Below are positions 1,930 to 10,021 of a DNA stretch of 64,000 bases, in pieces; within the stretch, counting starts at the first letter, position 1; each line of letters opens with the position of its first letter. This DNA is from Candidatus Aenigmatarchaeota archaeon. GTDB taxonomy: Archaea > Aenigmatarchaeota > Aenigmatarchaeia > CG10238-14. The DNA lies in NCBI GenBank assembly GCA_018304545.1, contig JAGVVZ010000003.1:32987-96986 (forward strand), given 5' to 3'. The notes beneath the pieces were generated by a model. That model saw only the letters and a program-made list of their open reading frames with translations. It did not search any database and was not told the DNA's origin. Both the position numbers and the translations under genes were made by a program.

Positions 1930-3069
1930 ATGAAAATAGGTTTATTATTAGATGATACGTTAGACTCGAATGATGGCGTCCAACAATATGTAAAGTCGCT
2001 GGCTAGATGGTTATTGAAAGAAGGACATGACGTAAAGTTTTTAGTCGGTCAAAGTTCGGATAAAAGTGAATTTGGAAATAGAGTGATTAGCCTAAGTACT
2101 AACATAATAGTCAGCGGCAACTCTAACATTTTATCGATGCCTATCTGGCCCAACATAGAAAAAATGAAGAAAAGTTTAGATGAAGAAAAGTTTGATGTTC
2201 TTCACGTTCAAGCGCCTTACTCTCCACTGATGTCGGAGATAATATTAAATTTAGCGAACACTCCAAAAGTTGCTACATTTCATATATTCTCTACTAATCC
2301 TGTCTACTGTTACGGTTCCAAAATTTTGGCTTTTTTTCAAAAAAAATCATTATCTTCCATTAGATTTATCTCAATTTCCGTTGCCTCCAAAAAATTTGCC
2401 AAAAATTTTTTTGGAGTGGATTCAATAGTCATACCCCCCGCTATCAATTTGAAAAAAAATGATGGAAAAATGATTAAAAAATATCTGGATGGAAAAATCA
2501 ATATTTTATTTTTTGGCAGATTAGTAAAGAGAAAGGGTGTGATATATCTTCTTCGTGCATACAAAAAACTCATCACCCGCATAGGTAAAAATTCTCTGCG
2601 TATAATCATTGCTGGAGAAGGTAAAGAGAAAACATGGTTAAAGATTTATGCCAAAATGTTTAACTTGCCTAATGTTGAGTTTACAGGTTACATAGAAGAG
2701 AATGACAAAGCAGCATACTACAACACCTCCGACATATGCGTGTTTACGGCAACACACGGAGAAAGCTTTGGCATTGTGCTTCTGGAGGCGATGGCTTGCG
2801 GCAAGCCTGTCGTTGCTTTTGCCAATGCAGGTTATAAGGAAGTGCTTGCCAATGCAGGTTATAAGGAAGTGCTTACCGGCGAAGGTGCGAGGTTTCTGGT
2901 AGAACCAAAAAATGTTGACGAGCTTGCGGAGAAGTTAGAAATATTAATAAAAGATAAGAAATTAAGAGATAGGATGGGGAAGTGGGGATTGGAAGAAGTG
3001 AAGAAATATGATTTATCTATTATGGGTAAACAAATACTAAATTTTTATAAAGAGGTTTTGAGGGATTAA
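1930..3069 (+). CDS. family-4 (GT-B) glycosyltransferase
   Basis: The N-terminal donor-less acceptor domain and the C-terminal motif GESFGIVLLEAMACGKPVV ... EP are typical of GT4. A GGTG motif lies 6 nt upstream of the ATG. Confidence 0.8.
   Translation: MKIGLLLDDTLDSNDGVQQYVKSLARWLLKEGHDVKFLVGQSSDKSEFGNRVISLSTNIIVSGNSNILSMPIWPNIEKMKKSLDEEKFDVLHVQAPYSPLMSEIILNLANTPKVATFHIFSTNPVYCYGSKILAFFQKKSLSSIRFISISVASKKFAKNFFGVDSIVIPPAINLKKNDGKMIKKYLDGKINILFFGRLVKRKGVIYLLRAYKKLITRIGKNSLRIIIAGEGKEKTWLKIYAKMFNLPNVEFTGYIEENDKAAYYNTSDICVFTATHGESFGIVLLEAMACGKPVVAFANAGYKEVLANAGYKEVLTGEGARFLVEPKNVDELAEKLEILIKDKKLRDRMGKWGLEEVKKYDLSIMGKQILNFYKEVLRD
2747..3013 (+). repeat. segmental duplicate shared with the downstream GT4 gene (partner 3891..4094)
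   Basis: 2747-2846 is identical over 100 bp to 3891-3990. 2911-3013 is about 93% identical to 3991-4094. This block is more GC-rich than the flanking sequence. Confidence 0.85.
2821..2874 (+). repeat. perfect 27-bp tandem duplication inside the GT4 gene (encodes ANAGYKEVL twice)
   Basis: gccaatgcaggttataaggaagtgctt occurs at 2821-2847 and again at 2848-2874. The duplication is in frame. Confidence 0.85.
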
Positions 3070-3073
3070 TCAA

Positions 3074-4153
3074 ATGAGAATAGCATTAGTGACCGCTCAT
3101 CCCATAACTTTACCAGGTGGCGTACAGGAACATGTCAGGGGTTTGTATAATTATTTGAAAAAAAACGGGCATTATGTAAAAATAATTTCACCTAATCCGG
3201 GCAAAGAAAGGAGTCACGAAGACATGATATATCTTGGCTATTCCATACCTGTTTCGTCTAATGATAGTAGCGCTAACATGAGTTACTGCTTTGATCAAAG
3301 AAATATCAAGAAATTATTAGAAAAAGAAAAATTCGAAATTATACATGTGCATAACCCTGCGTTGTTTGTCGGCTTGCAAATGTTGGACATGTCCACTTCA
3401 AAAAATATAATTACAATCCACACTCTCCCGGAAGGGAGCTATTTGTTCAAATCTTTCTCCAATTTCTTCGATATTCTATTCAAAGACAAAATACTAAAAA
3501 TGGATGGCGTCATTGCAGTATCAAAACCTATCTTAAATTATTTGCCTAAAAAATTAAATTGTCGAATTGAAGTTATACCAAATGGTATCAATACTGAAAG
3601 ATTTAATCCTAATGTTAAAAGAATAGAAAAATTCGATAATAAAAAAATAAACATACTCTTTTTAGGGAGATTAGATAAAAGAAAGGGGACAATATATTTA
3701 ATCAAAGCCTTTGAAAAAATAAGGAGGGGATATGACAATATCAGACTAATAATCGCTGGTGATGGTCAACAAATGAAAGAATGTAAATCTTATGTTAAAA
3801 AAAATAAAATTCATGATGTGAATTTTGAAGGTAATATTTCAAATGAGAATTTGCCTTCGTATTATTGCACTGCCGATATCTTCTGTTCACCGGCAACACA
3901 CGGAGAAAGCTTTGGCATTGTGCTTCTGGAGGCGATGGCTTGCGGCAAGCCTGTCGTTGCTTTTGCCAATGCAGGTTATAAGGAAGTGCAGAATGTTGAC
4001 GAGCTTGCGGAAAGACTAGAAATATTAATAAAAGATAAAAAATTAAGAGAGAGAATGGGGAAGTGGGGATTGGAAGAAGTGAAGAAATATGATTGGAATG
4101 TTGTTGGGAAAAAGATATTGGAGTTTTATGAAAAGGTTTTGAAGGGGGAATAA
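3074..4153 (+). CDS. family-4 glycosyltransferase, paralog of the upstream gene
   Basis: It has the same GESFGIVLLEAMACGKPVVAFANAGYKEV block as the upstream gene. It lacks the ~13 residues (LTGEGARFLVEPK) that follow the motif in the upstream paralog. Its start lies 5 nt after the upstream gene's stop. Confidence 0.8.
   Translation: MRIALVTAHPITLPGGVQEHVRGLYNYLKKNGHYVKIISPNPGKERSHEDMIYLGYSIPVSSNDSSANMSYCFDQRNIKKLLEKEKFEIIHVHNPALFVGLQMLDMSTSKNIITIHTLPEGSYLFKSFSNFFDILFKDKILKMDGVIAVSKPILNYLPKKLNCRIEVIPNGINTERFNPNVKRIEKFDNKKINILFLGRLDKRKGTIYLIKAFEKIRRGYDNIRLIIAGDGQQMKECKSYVKKNKIHDVNFEGNISNENLPSYYCTADIFCSPATHGESFGIVLLEAMACGKPVVAFANAGYKEVQNVDELAERLEILIKDKKLRERMGKWGLEEVKKYDWNVVGKKILEFYEKVLKGE
3891..4094 (+). 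repeat. segmental duplicate (partner 2747..3013)
   Basis: See partner feature. Shadow ORFs 2702..2902 and 3825..4019 share a peptide because of this duplication. Confidence 0.85.
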
Positions 4154-4507: not shown

Positions 4508-4543
4508 GCAAATTTAAAAACATTGAAACCGAATTATCTTGAC

Positions 4544-4819
4544 ATGAATAAATTTAATGTGATTTATTTTTTCAGCAACAATTCTGGAGCCTGTAAAATA
4601 CAGAATGAATTGATGTCCAATTTAGAAAAAAATTTCAAAGAAGTAAATTTCAAAAGGATTGATGTGGATGCCGATAATGCCACAAAAATCAAGTATCAGA
4701 TCAGTGAAACACCTAGCATAGTTCTTGAAAATGACGGCAAGGTAAAAGAAAAATTCTCTGGATTGACACAGGAACTGTTTTTAAGAAGAGCAATCGAAAA
4801 AAATTTGAATGGAAAATAA
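4544..4819 (+). CDS. thioredoxin-fold protein (single-Cys SGAC variant)
   Basis: The beta-alpha-beta N-terminus VIYFFSNNSGAC, the cis-Pro-like TPSIVL stretch and the length fit a thioredoxin-like fold. The ORF track starts at a TTG at 4523; the ATG at 4544 is more likely. Confidence 0.4.
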   Translation: MNKFNVIYFFSNNSGACKIQNELMSNLEKNFKEVNFKRIDVDADNATKIKYQISETPSIVLENDGKVKEKFSGLTQELFLRRAIEKNLNGK

Positions 4820-4913: not shown

Positions 4914-6455
4914 ATGGAAAAAATGCAATTCCTCAATTATGAAAAGTTTACTCCTAGATTATACCAAGAGCTCATAGCCGCTACAGCTGTAAAAAAGAAT
5001 ACGCTTTGCATACTTCCAACCGGATTGGGAAAAACTTTTATAGCCATTCTAGTATCTGCTTACAAATTGGAAGAATCAATTGACAGTAAGATCCTAATGA
5101 TCGCACCAACACGTCCACTGGTCAATCAGCATCTAGAAACGTTCAAAAAGAGCATGTATGTAGACGAGTCGAAGCTTATCGGACTGACAGGTAAAATTCA
5201 TAGAGATGACAGAAAGGTTCTTTATGAGAAAGGTCAAGTGTTTTTTACGACTCCGCAAATAGTTAGGAACGACGTGGATAACAAAATTCTAAATTTGGAA
5301 AAGTTTTCATTGCTCATCATAGATGAATGTCATAGATCTGTGAAGCAGTATGCATATACCGAAGTAACTGAGAGATATTTCAAATCTGCTTTGAAACCGT
5401 TGGTTTTGGGATTAACTGCATCACCTGGTGGAATCAAAGATAAAATAGATGAAGTGAAGAAGAATCTAAGGATAGAAGCGGTTGAAATCAGAACGGAAAA
5501 GGACGAGGATGTAAAACCGTATGTCAAAGAAACAGAAGTTCACCGTGTCTATGTAGAATTTCCTGAAGAATTTCAAAAAATCAGTAGACTACTTAAAGAC
5601 GTGTACGAAGAAAAAATATCCGCACTAATACGAGCCAGATTGCTTCAATCCTCGAGAGTATCAAAAAGAGAGATCCTTGACTTACAGATGGAACTCGGAA
5701 AAATGTATAGTGAGACAAAGGACTATGCTGTTGCACGCATGCTCGTAGTATGCGCCCAGACCATAAAAATAGAGCATGCTATCGGCCTACTAGAAACCCA
5801 AGGCATCGTACAATTAAACAAATACTTTCTGGAAATGGAGAAAAATAAAAGTTCTGCTAATAAGCATTTATTGAATGATGTCAAAGTACTGCAAGCAATA
5901 AAATTAACCAAAGAATTGTATCTGAACGGCACGGAACATCCGAAGCTGGGAAAATTATTGGAAATAATCAAAAAAGATGTCTCTGAGAAGAAGAATACTA
6001 AGATCATTGTTTTCGCAAACTATAGAGATACTGTAGAGAGGATTGTTAAGCTTCTGAATAAAAGTGGGATAGAAGCGAGGGAGTTTATAGGACAGGCCAA
6101 GAAAAGCGGTAAAGGATTATCACAGAAAGAGCAGATACAATTGTTGAATGAATTTGGTTATGAAATTTTTAACGTATTAGTCTGCACAAGCATCGGAGAA
6201 GAAGGACTATCTATCCCTGCTGTGGATATTGTAATGTTTTATGAGCCGGTGCCAAGCGAGATTAGGACAATTCAGAGAAGGGGGAGGACAGGAAGGACAG
6301 AAACAGGGAAGGTTATATTCCTCATAACTAAAGGCACGAGAGACGAAAGCTATTACTGGACAGCTTACCACAAAGAGAAAAGGATGAGAAGTATAATTGA
6401 CACGATGAAAGAGAACAACTCTGAGAAAAGAAAGGTTTCAGACTGGTTAGAGTAG
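4914..6455 (+). CDS. hef: Hef-type SF2 helicase (ERCC4-type helicase domain only, no nuclease domain)
   Basis: Motif I PTGLGKT, motif II DECH, motif III TASPG and motif VI QRRGRTGR are present. The 513-aa product ends where fused Hef proteins begin their nuclease domain. Confidence 0.8.
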   Translation: MEKMQFLNYEKFTPRLYQELIAATAVKKNTLCILPTGLGKTFIAILVSAYKLEESIDSKILMIAPTRPLVNQHLETFKKSMYVDESKLIGLTGKIHRDDRKVLYEKGQVFFTTPQIVRNDVDNKILNLEKFSLLIIDECHRSVKQYAYTEVTERYFKSALKPLVLGLTASPGGIKDKIDEVKKNLRIEAVEIRTEKDEDVKPYVKETEVHRVYVEFPEEFQKISRLLKDVYEEKISALIRARLLQSSRVSKREILDLQMELGKMYSETKDYAVARMLVVCAQTIKIEHAIGLLETQGIVQLNKYFLEMEKNKSSANKHLLNDVKVLQAIKLTKELYLNGTEHPKLGKLLEIIKKDVSEKKNTKIIVFANYRDTVERIVKLLNKSGIEAREFIGQAKKSGKGLSQKEQIQLLNEFGYEIFNVLVCTSIGEEGLSIPAVDIVMFYEPVPSEIRTIQRRGRTGRTETGKVIFLITKGTRDESYYWTAYHKEKRMRSIIDTMKENNSEKRKVSDWLE

Positions 6456-6525
6456 TACTATTGTTATCACTACTATATAGTGAATTATAGAAATATTCTT
6501 AAATGAAAAGTTGCTATATAGTGGT

Positions 6526-7215
6526 ATGTCTGTAATGGGTTACGTAAGACGAATACCGGCACATGTTGCAAATATTCCTAATTATATAGCTAGGATACCT
6601 GGTTATGCTCAAGCTGCAAATAGACATCCAAATTTAACCGCAGCTGCAGTAGGTCTAGCACCTGCAGCAGGATTAGGAGCAATAGGATTATATCATATAA
6701 ATAGTGCTGAAGGTTTAGCGGCTTTAGGCCTCATGCTTGTTTATACTGCTGCTGGATCAGCCATTTTAAATGTTGGAACTAGAATCGGAAGACGTGCTGT
6801 AATAGCAGCTACAGGTGGTGCTCAAAATGCAGATAGAGCTGTCAGATTTGCCGATGTTTATGCTGTAGCCAACTTAATTGGTGGCGCTCTTAATATCTGT
6901 CCTTATTTAGGTGCTGCTGTTAGTGATGGCGTGGGTGATGCGTTCAGATGGAGAACTGCTAGAGAAGCTGCTGATGCAATAAGACTTACCGGAAATTTAG
7001 TATGTCAGCCCGCAACTACAATTGCTTCTGCTGCCGGTGCATATGTATTATCAAGAGGTGCTAGATTAGCTGAAGCAGGTGCAAGAAGAGCATATAATGC
7101 TGCTAGTCCTGCAGTGCAAGACGCATTAGCAAATCCTGCGGTGCAAGCACAGATAGGAAGAACTGCATTTGATTTGGCGGTTGCATACGTCAAGAGAATG
7201 TTGGGTTTACCATAA
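6526..7215 (+). CDS. Ala/Gly-rich hypothetical protein with several hydrophobic glycine-zipper-like segments
   Basis: About 25% Ala and 12% Gly in an otherwise Lys/Ile/Asn-rich proteome. Segments such as LTAAAVGLAPAAGLGAIGLY and LAALGLMLVYTAAGSAIL are hydrophobic. Codon third positions are still A/T-rich. The ORF track uses a TTG at 6511. Confidence 0.4.
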   Translation: MSVMGYVRRIPAHVANIPNYIARIPGYAQAANRHPNLTAAAVGLAPAAGLGAIGLYHINSAEGLAALGLMLVYTAAGSAILNVGTRIGRRAVIAATGGAQNADRAVRFADVYAVANLIGGALNICPYLGAAVSDGVGDAFRWRTAREAADAIRLTGNLVCQPATTIASAAGAYVLSRGARLAEAGARRAYNAASPAVQDALANPAVQAQIGRTAFDLAVAYVKRMLGLP

Positions 7216-7320
7216 ATTACTCAAATAAAGCAATCTTCTCATTTTTTGATTCAATATTGATAAAATTATACCACTAAAGAGTAAGTAATATTAAGTATTT
7301 GTATAAACAAATTAATCGTT

Positions 7321-7758
7321 ATGGCACTGCAACCACAAGGAGAGGATTGGTTAGGAAGATTATTACCTAATCCTGGCACTCTAGTAACTATAGGCGGATC
7401 TTTATTAGCAGGTGCTACGGTTTACGTATTAGCAGAAATCGTAGAACAAATGATAGGTGCAAGAGGGGCAGTAAAATATGCACTTGACACAACACAGTAC
7501 ATTCTCGGGCCTGTTGCTACCATAATAGCAACCAATTTATTAATGAGGATGCCTGATGTGAGTCCATGGTCTGCAGTGGTGACATATCCGGTTGCTGTTG
7601 GAGTAGCGATAGTTGGTTTTTACGGAATAGGAGCAGAAGTAACTGAATTATACAGAGAAACCTTTAATGGTGACTTCATTGCCTTTTGTATTGGTTGTTG
7701 TCCGGCCGGATTAATAGCAGGTGCCGCTGCTGGTTTGAGTGCTTATAGAGGAAGATAA
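7321..7758 (+). CDS. small Ala/Gly-rich integral membrane protein (4 predicted TM helices)
   Basis: Four hydrophobic helices (LVTIGGSLLAGATVYVLAEIV, ILGPVATIIATNLLM, VVTYPVAVGVAIVGFYGIG, IAFCIGCCPAGLIAGAAAGL). A CIGCC motif is present. Confidence 0.4.
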   Translation: MALQPQGEDWLGRLLPNPGTLVTIGGSLLAGATVYVLAEIVEQMIGARGAVKYALDTTQYILGPVATIIATNLLMRMPDVSPWSAVVTYPVAVGVAIVGFYGIGAEVTELYRETFNGDFIAFCIGCCPAGLIAGAAAGLSAYRGR

Positions 7759-7788
7759 ATTTATTTTTAGAAATTCAATTTGTTAATA

Positions 7789-8457
7789 ATGCAAGGTATT
7801 CTCAAACCCGATGACAGGACTGCTGTAATAATAGACGATAGAGAAAGAGCTAGTCTCATATCAGAACGGCTAAAAAAATTAAATGTCATTCTCAACTGGC
7901 AGAGGCTGGAAGTAGGCGATTTCATACTCTCTGACAGATGCTGCATTGAAAGAAAGACGTTTGATGATTTCGCAAGTTCGATTGCCGATGGTAGATTATT
8001 TCAGCAATTAGAAGAATTGAAAAGAAATTTTGAAAGGCCTATGCTTATATTAGAGGGACGTGCGCTAAAAAGGAACGTGAGTGAAAATGCTGTAAAGGCC
8101 GCTATGGCCGCTACTATGCTACAGTACGATATACCCATTTTGATGACGAAAGATGTTGATGAAACTGCTAAAATTATTTATTGGCTTGCGAAGAAAGAAC
8201 AAACTGATAATAAAAGAGTTATTGGAATAAAAGGTAAAAAGAAACCGAAAGAAGCAAGTCTGTTGCAAGAACATTTTATTGCCAGCCTGCCTGGAATATC
8301 TACAGTGCTGTCGAAAAAAATATTGAACGAGTTTAAAACTGTTAAAAACTTTGTTAATTCTAAAGAAGAGGATATTGCTAAGATAAAAGGCTTTGGGAAA
8401 AAACAGGCAAAAAAATTGTGGAAAATAATAAACGGCAAATATGAGGTTGATAAATGA
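7789..8457 (+). CDS. XPF/Hef-type ERCC4 nuclease with C-terminal HhH2 domain
   Basis: ERK active-site signature VGDFILSDRCCIERKTFDDF. The C-terminus LPGIS...GFGKKQAKKL forms tandem helix-hairpin-helix repeats. The ORF track uses a TTG at 7780. Confidence 0.8.
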   Translation: MQGILKPDDRTAVIIDDRERASLISERLKKLNVILNWQRLEVGDFILSDRCCIERKTFDDFASSIADGRLFQQLEELKRNFERPMLILEGRALKRNVSENAVKAAMAATMLQYDIPILMTKDVDETAKIIYWLAKKEQTDNKRVIGIKGKKKPKEASLLQEHFIASLPGISTVLSKKILNEFKTVKNFVNSKEEDIAKIKGFGKKQAKKLWKIINGKYEVDK

Positions 8458-9554
8458 AAAGACCCGTCATAGTTGGATTTGATCCCGGCACTACAGCTGG
8501 CCTGGCAATCATTGACACCAACGGCCAACTGCTCTTTCTATCCAGCAAAAAAGAAATGAAGAGAAATGAAATATTACGAAACATCATGGCACGCGGAAAA
8601 CCTATCATTATTTCTGCTGACAGAAATCCGTTGCCGCACAACGTTGAGAAACTAGCAAGCACACTGGGTTGCAGGCCATTCTATCCTATCAGATCGTTAT
8701 CGAGTTTAGAGAAAATAAAACTAGTTGGAGGCTTTTCAGACAAAATAAAAAATGATCACGAGAGGGATGCATTAGCTGCTGCCTTAGGAGTTTACAAACA
8801 TTACGCATCATTATTTTTAAAGACCAAGAGAGAACTTGAAAGGATAGGCTTGATCAAACTACACTCATCTGTTCTGGAAAAATTAATAACAAACGAAGCA
8901 GAAAACATAGAAGAAGCTATAGAGATGTCGCAAGAAAAAATACCAAAGATGGAAAAAGAAAAAATTACGCCAAAAATAGAAGTTGCTGTTCCTAAGAATG
9001 TTGCTCTTTTGGAAGAAGAACTTAAAAGAAAGAAGATGGATATTGAAATATTGAAAAAATATAATGAAGACTTGAAAAAAAGAATTGAGCATAATGATAA
9101 AGAACTAAAAATATCTTTGGAAAAAAAATCCGATGGCAATGTCGAGAGACTGAAAGGTGAGATAAGAAAAAAGAACGAGACAATAAAATTACTCAGGGAT
9201 TATAGGCAACATGAAATAAAAGATCTCATGCCTGTGATTGAAATCAAAAACATTAAAAAGGATGAGACGGATGTGTTGCATAATGCTATTGATTTAACAA
9301 ACAGAATCGTATATGCGAAAAATTCTGAGAATGCGCAAATCCTGAATGACTATAATATAAGAGCGCTCATCACTAATACAGAAAACATGTCAAAAAAAAT
9401 TAATTTTCCTGCGATCGATATTAAAGATATTTCCATTCAGCAGTCAAATGAATATAAGGTAGTTGCTGAGAAAGAACTGGAAGAAAATGTTACCAGATCT
9501 AAAAAGACAGGGATAGTTGAATGGCTGGAAACTTACAAGAAAAGGAAAATTTAA
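8454..9554 (+). CDS. DUF460-like archaeal protein: RNase H-fold N-domain plus long coiled-coil tail
   Basis: The N-terminus VIVGFDPGTTAGLAIID resembles the first strand and Asp of RuvC/YqgF-type folds. Residues 130-330 are heptad-rich (K/E). The ATG overlaps the XPF stop (ATGA). Confidence 0.5.
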   Translation: MKRPVIVGFDPGTTAGLAIIDTNGQLLFLSSKKEMKRNEILRNIMARGKPIIISADRNPLPHNVEKLASTLGCRPFYPIRSLSSLEKIKLVGGFSDKIKNDHERDALAAALGVYKHYASLFLKTKRELERIGLIKLHSSVLEKLITNEAENIEEAIEMSQEKIPKMEKEKITPKIEVAVPKNVALLEEELKRKKMDIEILKKYNEDLKKRIEHNDKELKISLEKKSDGNVERLKGEIRKKNETIKLLRDYRQHEIKDLMPVIEIKNIKKDETDVLHNAIDLTNRIVYAKNSENAQILNDYNIRALITNTENMSKKINFPAIDIKDISIQQSNEYKVVAEKELEENVTRSKKTGIVEWLETYKKRKI

Positions 9555-10021
9555 TTCAAGCTGGTTTATTTCTTTTGAAGGTTAACGTCCTGTTAATACC
9601 GTTCTATGTCATAAGCTATATCAAGTTCACTGTTTTGCCGTTGCAAACTGGTTTTGCTGCATTGATTGCTTTTATGCTGAAGGCTTTTAATTTGCAGGTT
9701 TTACAAGCCGATCAATTTCTCTATCTCGGTGCAGACAAATATCCGATAGACATTTCATTCGATTGCTTGGGTTGGAAATCCGTGTATTCACTCTCTGTCC
9801 TAGTAATTGCGACACCCGGCAATATCAAAGAGAAGCTGCATTTTCTAAAGATATGGTTACCTGTCCTGATTGCTATAAACATATTTCGTATAATATCAAT
9901 TATTTTATTAGGCAACGCATTGGGTTACCAGTATATAGAAGCTATCCATAATAATATTTGGCAGATAGGAATAATTGGATTGGTTGTAGGTGTGTGGTAT
10001 CTATGGTTGAAGAAAATGTAA
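9521..10021 (+). CDS. short exosortase/archaeosortase-family membrane protein (ArtE-like)
   Basis: 166 aa with 5 predicted TM helices. A DCLGWKS motif resembles the catalytic Cys region of exosortases. A downstream Arg (NIFRI) and Asn (LGNAL) are conserved. It overlaps the upstream gene by 34 nt. Confidence 0.45.
   Translation: MAGNLQEKENLIQAGLFLLKVNVLLIPFYVISYIKFTVLPLQTGFAALIAFMLKAFNLQVLQADQFLYLGADKYPIDISFDCLGWKSVYSLSVLVIATPGNIKEKLHFLKIWLPVLIAINIFRIISIILLGNALGYQYIEAIHNNIWQIGIIGLVVGVWYLWLKKM

Follow-up and report, generated by a model that had tools for sequence, protein, structure and literature searches.

In Pyrococcus furiosus, Hef is a fused protein in which a helicase (structure 1wp9) is followed by a nuclease (1j22-1j25) and a HhH2 domain (1x2i). 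Stand-alone forms of each half are already known, namely the helicase-only Hef of Thermoplasma and the short XPF of Crenarchaeota. Here, we describe a locus in which the two halves of Hef are encoded by separate genes with two further open reading frames (ORFs) between them. It lies in a stretch of 64,000 nucleotides from a Candidatus Aenigmatarchaeota archaeon (GenBank assembly GCA_018304545.1, contig JAGVVZ010000003.1, positions 32,987 to 96,986 of the forward strand). The whole stretch is called the window, and all its coordinates count from its first nucleotide.

The fused Hef of Thermococcales contains a long disordered linker (PMC6158738). The Hef of Thermoplasma acidophilum (taHef) is described as having no nuclease domain, and a partner nuclease gene is not shown; its C-terminal PCNA-interacting protein (PIP) box, at residues 502-508, binds PCNA by size-exclusion chromatography and isothermal titration calorimetry (PMC4838364). 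The nuclease half has its stand-alone counterpart in short XPF, for example that of Aeropyrum pernix (2bgw/2bhn; NCBIfam model NF040956, Arch_Xpf_endonucase), which consists of ERCC4 and HhH2 domains in ~220 aa. Sulfolobus XPF reportedly depends on PCNA through a C-terminal PCNA-interaction motif. A cofactor role of PCNA is described in PMC2836553. In DPANN archaea, the reviewed split informational genes include reverse gyrase, alanyl-tRNA synthetase (AlaRS), DNA polymerase and topoisomerase I of Nanoarchaeum equitans, as well as Dph1/2 (PMC6349945). Hef is not among the split-gene examples in the literature searched; the same literature yielded no explicit description of a syntenic two-gene Hef, the helicase-only taHef being the sole relevant item.

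The original prediction for this DNA assumed that a 1.3-kb insertion had split hef into two genes. The evidence assembled below points to a different history. With a probability that we put at roughly 0.85, Hef underwent an old fission that is shared by a whole clade, and orphan genes were gained later in the spacer that already existed between its halves.

The helicase and nuclease genes

According to the ORF listing of the window, four ORFs follow one another between positions 4914 and 8457 on the + strand:

4914-6455, + strand: Hef-type helicase gene, recognized by its ORF and by profile and structure matches
6535-7215, + strand: ORF A, Ala/Gly-rich
7321-7758, + strand: ORF B, Ala/Gly-rich
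7789-8457, + strand: nuclease gene with ERCC4 and HhH2 domains, recognized by its ORF and by profile and structure matches

All four lie where the original prediction had placed them, with the two Hef genes separate, on the same strand and 1.3 kb apart. The arrangement is no assembly chimera or artefact, since an independent metagenome contig in ENA (ERZ4903137, 187 kb) is 100% identical to it over 8,466 nt that include the entire locus, and related arrangements occur in four other assemblies, among NCBI metagenome-assembled genomes (MAGs) and Logan assemblies of other runs.

The helicase gene encodes 513 aa, or 510 aa in the ENA gene call, which begins at M4. Its Pfam matches are DEAD, ResIII, the RNA_helicase_helical insertion domain (PF21210, E=2e-11) and Helicase_C. 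Residues 10-492 can be aligned to residues 6-493 of 1wp9, the structure of the P. furiosus Hef helicase, which has 494 residues (phmmer, E=2e-125). Against the NCBIfam equivalog model for Hef (NF010337; 781 positions, cut-off 610 bits), the protein scores 618.7 bits over profile positions 7-513. Motifs I (GxGKT), II (DExH), III (TAS) and VI (QRxGR) are invariant across the family alignment, which bears out the earlier description of a 513-aa ORF with intact motifs. The protein thus has the superfamily 2 (SF2) core as well as the thumb-like insertion domain of Hef/FANCM helicases and is complete to the end of the domain. A C-terminal truncation, which had been considered as a possibility, is excluded by the alignment with 1wp9, covered to residue 493 of 494, and by the NF010337 score over the cut-off. 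The single polypeptide that NF010337 describes is absent: the helicase ends with its stop codon at 6453-6455 and the nuclease begins at 7789, with two ORFs in the interval.

The likeliest start of the nuclease is the ATG at 7789 (222 aa), which relatives share and which the ENA gene call also adopts; a TTG at 7780, giving the 225 aa of the original prediction, is less likely. Pfam identifies ERCC4 (E=5e-33) and HHH_5 (E=8e-9), and its alignments with A. pernix XPF (2bgw, E=9e-32) and with the P. furiosus Hef nuclease (1j22, E=3e-28) run from end to end. The catalytic signature GDx(n)ERKx3D reads GDFILSDRCCIERKTFDD, so that the ERK motif is intact, as had been claimed, and the order of a C-terminal ERCC4 nuclease with this signature followed by HhH2 is that of Hef. 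The nuclease scores 220 bits against NF010337 (positions 569-780 of 781) and 135.4 bits against the Xpf model NF040956, well under the cut-off of 300 and thus outside the Xpf family as that model defines it. Because of this difference (220 bits for Hef vs 135 for Xpf), the nuclease is regarded as Hef-derived and not as a crenarchaeal short XPF. By analogy with Hef and XPF, it probably dimerises through its HhH2 and nuclease domains. The protein ends in ...KKLWKIINGKYEVDK, where no obvious PIP box is seen.

Together the two proteins amount to 513+222 = 735 aa, compared with 718-775 aa for fused relatives, and the domain order is the same, which agrees with the original prediction on both counts. 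That prediction was also right to call this a real fission and not a pseudogene, both halves being complete and conserved. When fused relatives are aligned with the concatenated halves of the window, the helicase stop falls inside a linker of only ~10 residues, immediately behind a motif whose sequence is xTLxxFI in fused Hef and KVSDWLE in the window. The start of the nuclease lies a few residues ahead of its first strand (IIDDRE). The proposed position of the break within the interdomain linker is thereby confirmed, both by this alignment and by the structure and profile coverage of the two halves.

The helicase ends in a short motif:

6426-6452, + strand: PIP-box-like C-terminal motif KRKVSDWLE of the helicase (family consensus KxxLxDWxK-COOH)

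The pattern [LIVM]xx[FWY] occurs within the last 16 aa in 114 of 120 helicase-only homologues vs 29% of control windows, and the aromatic residue is mostly found two residues from the C-terminus. Judged by its residues, the motif resembles the validated PIP box of taHef, and the tail of the stand-alone helicase probably docks on PCNA, as that of taHef does. In the explanation favoured here, the fission broke the short interdomain linker just behind the PIP-box-like motif.

Relative age of the fission and the insertion

The 120 best homologues of the helicase, ranging from 100% down to 48% identity, are all helicase-only proteins of 500-527 aa without ERCC4, and most of them are named as Aenigmarchaeota. 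Two bear other names, "candidate division WOR-3 bacterium" (P0009) and "Micrarchaeota RBG_16_49_10" (P0077); these are probably binning or naming errors in public records and not occurrences beyond the clade. The loci of informative relatives, ordered by the number of ORFs between helicase and nuclease, are as follows:

L002 (GCA_017880035.1, 780-kb contig): helicase 67% identical to that of the window; no ORF between; junction TGAgcaaATG, with a frame change
L012, L013, L016 and L017: helicase 49-69% identical; no ORF between; genes 0-9 bp apart, with the synteny of the window
L001 (GCA_964372465.1): helicase 83% identical; one ORF between (135 aa)
L092: only the last 36 aa of the helicase on the contig, nuclease 90% identical; one ORF between (138 aa)
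Window: helicase 100%; two ORFs between
L005 (GCA_964373165.1): helicase 93% identical; three ORFs between

In L003, the helicase and nuclease genes are likewise separate, 0-9 bp apart and in the same synteny as in the window. The gene order of L002 is that of the window as well: glycosyltransferase, DUF2784, thioredoxin, helicase, nuclease, DUF460 and archaeosortase. The single ORF of L001 and of L092 is a homologue of ORF B (35% identical), and the three ORFs of L005 are a homologue of ORF A, an unrelated 299-aa ORF and a homologue of ORF B.

Since relatives without the insert already carry two separate, adjacent genes, the fission predates the insertion. As a result, the two-gene state is ancestral for the window's clade, and the 1.3 kb entered an intergenic gap that was already there. 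In favour of the first idea, that a lineage-specific 1.3-kb insertion inside a fused hef created both genes, one can cite that the halves lie to either side of the insert on one strand and together have the length of a fused Hef. This account is nevertheless extremely improbable. Relatives without the insert have the stop codon, a gap of 0-9 bp and the frame change; all 120 of the closest helicases are helicase-only; and the C-terminal motif of the helicase and the start of the nuclease are conserved between inserted and uninserted genomes. The supposed lineage specificity therefore holds for the insertion, which is confined to the closest relatives, and fails for the fission, as close relatives are natively split.

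A wider survey comprised 91 loci from genomes and metagenomes, the metagenomes having been scanned with an alignment as query; a contig scan with a single protein query returned five loci only. Fused Hef of 718-775 aa is present at 42 loci (one of them from a Woesearchaeota MAG), with 5 partial ones in addition, and the helicases are 41-47% identical to that of the window. Split Hef occurs at 19 loci, always with both halves on the same strand, adjacent in 8 and separated by gaps in 11. At another 4 loci the helicase is not followed by any nuclease within 2.7-6 kb downstream, and at 15 the contig ends too soon for classification. In a rough neighbour-joining tree (midpoint root, no support values), the split and helicase-only states fall in at least 2-3 clades. 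One split clade comprises the window and all its relatives, and a second is nested among fused sequences. In the second clade the halves are separated by an 82-aa glutaredoxin-like ORF (L030, L050), by a 233-aa ORF on the opposite strand (L084) or by 3.7 kb (L057), and in L063, near the window's clade, by a 206-aa ORF. Given these multiple split clades with unrelated intervening genes, the split of Hef, with its halves drifting afterwards, recurs in uncultured archaea. For the window's clade, the sequences make a fission the likely polarity rather than an ancestral split.

Two side observations concern these clades. The glutaredoxin-like gene, with a CPWC motif, lies at 2444-2692 (+) in L030 and at 6565-6813 (-) in L050, thus on opposite strands in the two loci, and in the window's clade a thioredoxin gene (4523-4819 in the window) stands immediately upstream of the helicase; there may be a recurring neighbourhood of redox proteins around split Hef. 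Furthermore, Hef-like helicases of ~510 aa form a separate clade (L062, L090, L010 and L020, together with L061, L066, L071, L072, L074, L082 and L085). In the first four of these loci no nuclease gene lies within 2.7-6 kb downstream, and they may represent taHef-like helicase-only lineages.

The following course of events is proposed. In this genome of Candidatus Aenigmarchaeota (DPANN), Hef, the archaeal fork-processing enzyme of the XPF/MUS81/FANCM family, is encoded by two genes. On the proposed view they result from an ancient fission fixed in the clade, which would have left a complete SF2 helicase with a PIP-like tail and a complete ERCC4-HhH2 nuclease. The ancestral order would have been helicase-nuclease-DUF460-archaeosortase, with the first two genes 0-9 bp apart. 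In one young sub-lineage, the spacer between helicase and nuclease would then have accumulated lineage-restricted orphan genes: ORF B first (four lineages), then ORF A (the window and one relative). The 299-aa ORF occurs in that relative alone, L005; either it is a gain of L005 or the window has lost it.

The intervening ORFs and the neighbouring genes

The likeliest start of ORF A is the ATG at 6535, which is conserved with L005 and gives 226 aa; alternative starts lie at 6526 (229 aa, the ENA call) and at a TTG at 6511 (234 aa). ORF B, which forms the insertion's core, encodes 145 aa with about four predicted helices, and its protein appears in the public record as a hypothetical protein of a Candidatus Aenigmarchaeota MAG. 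The two ORFs stand out by composition, as had been noted from the start: Ala and Gly together make up 0.35 of ORF A and 0.27 of ORF B, compared with a median of 0.116 for the long ORFs of the window. They are not paralogues of each other, and no paralogues of either occur elsewhere in the window or in 92 loci. At the N-terminus of ORF A (6535-6625), there is a short imperfect peptide repeat (RRIPAHVAN / IPNYIAR / IPGYAQA), mirrored in the direct DNA repeats D3 and D6 and conserved in the L005 homologue.

Homologues of the two proteins are few. For each of them, a word-indexed search returned one close relative besides the protein of the window itself. The 35%-identical ORF of L001 escaped this search, and direct comparison and an exhaustive search recovered it. 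The single homologue of ORF A (P0123, 83% identical) comes from the same locus in GCA_964373165.1. For ORF B, an exhaustive HMMER search of 1.84 billion cluster representatives yielded three real relatives, from L005, L001 and L092, and all three lie between a Hef helicase and a Hef nuclease. A fourth match, to a repetitive low-complexity protein, was rejected as not being a real relative. Neither ORF matches anything in Pfam, NCBIfam, PHROG or, by tblastn, phage genomes.

Orphans of this kind need not be genes at all, and the 1.3 kb could be a non-coding spacer or an RNA element with chance frames. The lack of homologues beyond a tiny clade, the lack of domain matches and the low-confidence structure models described below would fit such a view. 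It is very unlikely, however, for several reasons. When the window is compared with L005, the ratio of nonsynonymous to synonymous substitution rates (dN/dS) comes to 0.33 in ORF A and 0.20 in ORF B, with flanking genes at 0.04-0.18. Three-base codon periodicity is very strong, GC content at the three codon positions (GC1/GC2/GC3) being 0.59/0.56/0.17 in ORF A and 0.54/0.49/0.25 in ORF B. The frame of ORF B is intact in four lineages that are only 30-36% identical to one another in this protein, next to nucleases that are 86-90% identical, and Rfam and tRNA scans of the window gave no match. Taken together, dN/dS, codon periodicity and the preserved frame of ORF B make ORFs A and B look like real genes. 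Purifying selection on them is weak, and their rate of evolution is several times that of the genes around them.

A further alternative takes the insert for what is left of a mobile element or virus, or for a small cargo cassette, with the junction of helicase and nuclease as its target. Between 0 and 3 ORFs occur at this single site among close relatives, the proteins are orphans, and GC3 is 0.17-0.25, under the 0.33-0.45 of the flanks, all of which could be expected of such an element. The regional GC, which rises to 0.45 at the insert, owes its rise to Ala/Gly codons at positions 1 and 2 and not to GC-rich foreign DNA. No integrase or transposase ORF is present. Looking for terminal inverted repeats or target duplications that flank the insert turned up nothing beyond short matches at chance level and the duplicated TATA-like 10-mer. 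There is no PHROG or phage-genome match either. ORF B is found nowhere else among the 1.84 billion representatives, and its divergence pattern fits vertical descent at one locus. An origin from a mobile element is consequently improbable.

Both proteins are hydrophobic, with several Kyte-Doolittle segments of membrane-spanning length. AlphaFold2 (AF2) models built without an alignment are all-alpha for ORF A (predicted local distance difference test score, pLDDT, 49) and consist of four long helices for ORF B (pLDDT 51). ORFs A and B are probably small, lineage-restricted, helical membrane proteins, a location suggested by their hydrophobic segments, and they are probably unconnected with Hef biochemistry. 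The 299-aa orphan ORF between the ORF A and ORF B homologues of L005 (L005 1876-2775) has no counterpart in the window. Its N-terminal part is soluble and helical, its C-terminus is hydrophobic, and it has no precomputed Pfam, NCBIfam, PHROG or phage match.

A functional role in connection with Hef would be conceivable if ORF B, and possibly ORF A, were an accessory of the split enzyme, such as a membrane tether or regulator, kept between the halves for co-expression. All known members of the ORF B family sit precisely between helicase and nuclease, and purifying selection is evident. Set against this, most of the split clade does without ORF B, the protein evolves far faster than the Hef genes, its hydrophobicity is unexpected for a DNA-repair cofactor, and its fixed position is equally well explained by vertical inheritance; we accordingly give the accessory role only a very small chance. 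A bolder suggestion, unlikely in our view, is that the spacer left by the fission serves as a nursery for new genes, in which ORF B, and later ORF A and the 299-aa ORF, would have originated de novo or been captured and then diverged fast, or else that ORF B is a partner specific to the lineage, linking the Hef halves to the membrane. If the nursery were real, the locus would offer a dated 0/1/2/3 series of orphan membrane-protein genes inside a conserved DNA-repair operon.

The explanation that we prefer, an old fission followed by later gain of orphan genes, also has points that weigh against it. The neighbour-joining tree is midpoint-rooted and lacks support values, and an ancestor with separate genes, followed by fusion, would be compatible with it as well. 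The constant position of ORF B is also compatible with a functional link to Hef. Confidence in the structure models is low for both ORF A (pLDDT 49) and ORF B (51), and PCNA binding, dimerisation of the nuclease, cooperation of the halves and the membrane location of ORFs A and B are inferred.

The spacers of the locus carry putative transcription signals:

6456-6534, + strand: spacer between helicase and ORF A, with the TATA-like element CTATATAGTG twice, at 6473-6482 and 6514-6523 (direct repeat D9)
7216-7320, + strand: spacer between ORFs A and B, with a T-run at 7243-7248 (T6) and the TATA-like element TTTGTATAAA at 7298-7307
7757-7788, + strand: short, AT-rich spacer before the nuclease gene, AAATTTATTTTTAG..., which L001 and L005 conserve

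The element CTATATAGTG is conserved in L005 and partly in L001. ORF A, ORF B and the nuclease each have an AT-rich TATA-like element a few tens of bases before the ATG, that of the nuclease being AAATTTATTTTTAG at 7757. On the strength of such elements, the four genes may be transcribed each from its own TATA-like element, as independent and nearly leaderless transcripts; at a genome GC of ~35%, however, AT-rich elements of this type also arise by chance. The T6 run after ORF A is a possible archaeal terminator, and the spacer at 7757-7788 a possible promoter and/or terminator.

The gene that follows the nuclease is the next feature of the locus:

8454-9554, + strand: DUF460 gene (PF04312, E=1.7e-34), whose start overlaps the nuclease stop by 4 nt

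It carries no NCBIfam name and is followed by a short archaeosortase-like gene, the pair spanning window positions 8454-10021. DUF460 stands after the nuclease in L001, L002, L005, L013, L016, L017, L053, L063, L073 and L092, and tblastn places the archaeosortase-like gene after it in L001, L002, L005, L016, L017, L053 and L073. DUF460 near a fused hef was seen in L031 only, on the opposite strand. The order nuclease-DUF460-archaeosortase is kept throughout the split clade, and, together with the 4-nt overlap, this ties the nuclease more tightly to its downstream neighbour than to the helicase. It suggests that the Hef nuclease and DUF460 are functionally linked.

Farther upstream, the window carries a tandem pair of paralogous GT4 glycosyltransferases (window positions 1930-4153, corresponding to L004 2999-5231), and this segment is the sole difference between the window and the otherwise identical ENA contig. 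GT1 shows a 27-nt duplication (ANAGYKEVL twice) and GT2 a 36-nt deletion, both within a segment common to the two paralogues; they stem either from recombination of the paralogues with each other or from an artefact in the assembly of one record.

Comparison with known systems

Hef thus exists in three natural forms: fused, helicase-only and syntenic two-gene. The two-gene state is plainly visible in public annotations, in which the halves currently carry labels such as "Fanconi anemia group M protein" or "DEAD/DEAH box helicase". Current views of the Hef mechanism are left unchanged by this locus. Its value is that an attractive causal account, in which an insertion broke a gene, is corrected, and that the fission point after the PIP-like motif marks a natural domain boundary, which is useful for the dissection of Hef/FANCM and for the annotation of DPANN genomes. 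Only the ladder of orphan genes at the fission point is mildly out of the ordinary; it represents a small, clean case of lineage-specific gene accumulation in reduced archaeal genomes.

Compared with fused P. furiosus Hef, the window has the same two domains in the same order, with the thumb-like insertion domain, GDxnERKx3D and HhH2 also found in its halves. Unlike the fused protein, they are encoded by two genes with their own starts and stops, only a few linker residues are left, and the disordered linker of Thermococcales Hef has no counterpart. The likeness to taHef lies in a stand-alone helicase of ~510 aa that ends in a motif of the [K/Q]xx[L/I]xD[F/W] type. In contrast to taHef, the helicase here retains a gene for a Hef-type nuclease beside it or close by; the motif opens with K or R instead of Q, and binding to PCNA is here a prediction. 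The nuclease is, like short XPF, a stand-alone protein of similar size with ERCC4 and HhH2, and A. pernix XPF (2bgw) is its best PDB match. It differs from short XPF in its higher score with the Hef model and in having no evident PIP-like C-terminal tail. Finally, the split resembles the split genes of other DPANN archaea in that a multidomain information-processing gene was cut at a domain boundary in a lineage with reduced genomes. Unlike the cases in N. equitans, the two halves of Hef stay syntenic, and the split is fixed throughout a clade and not restricted to a single, highly reduced species.

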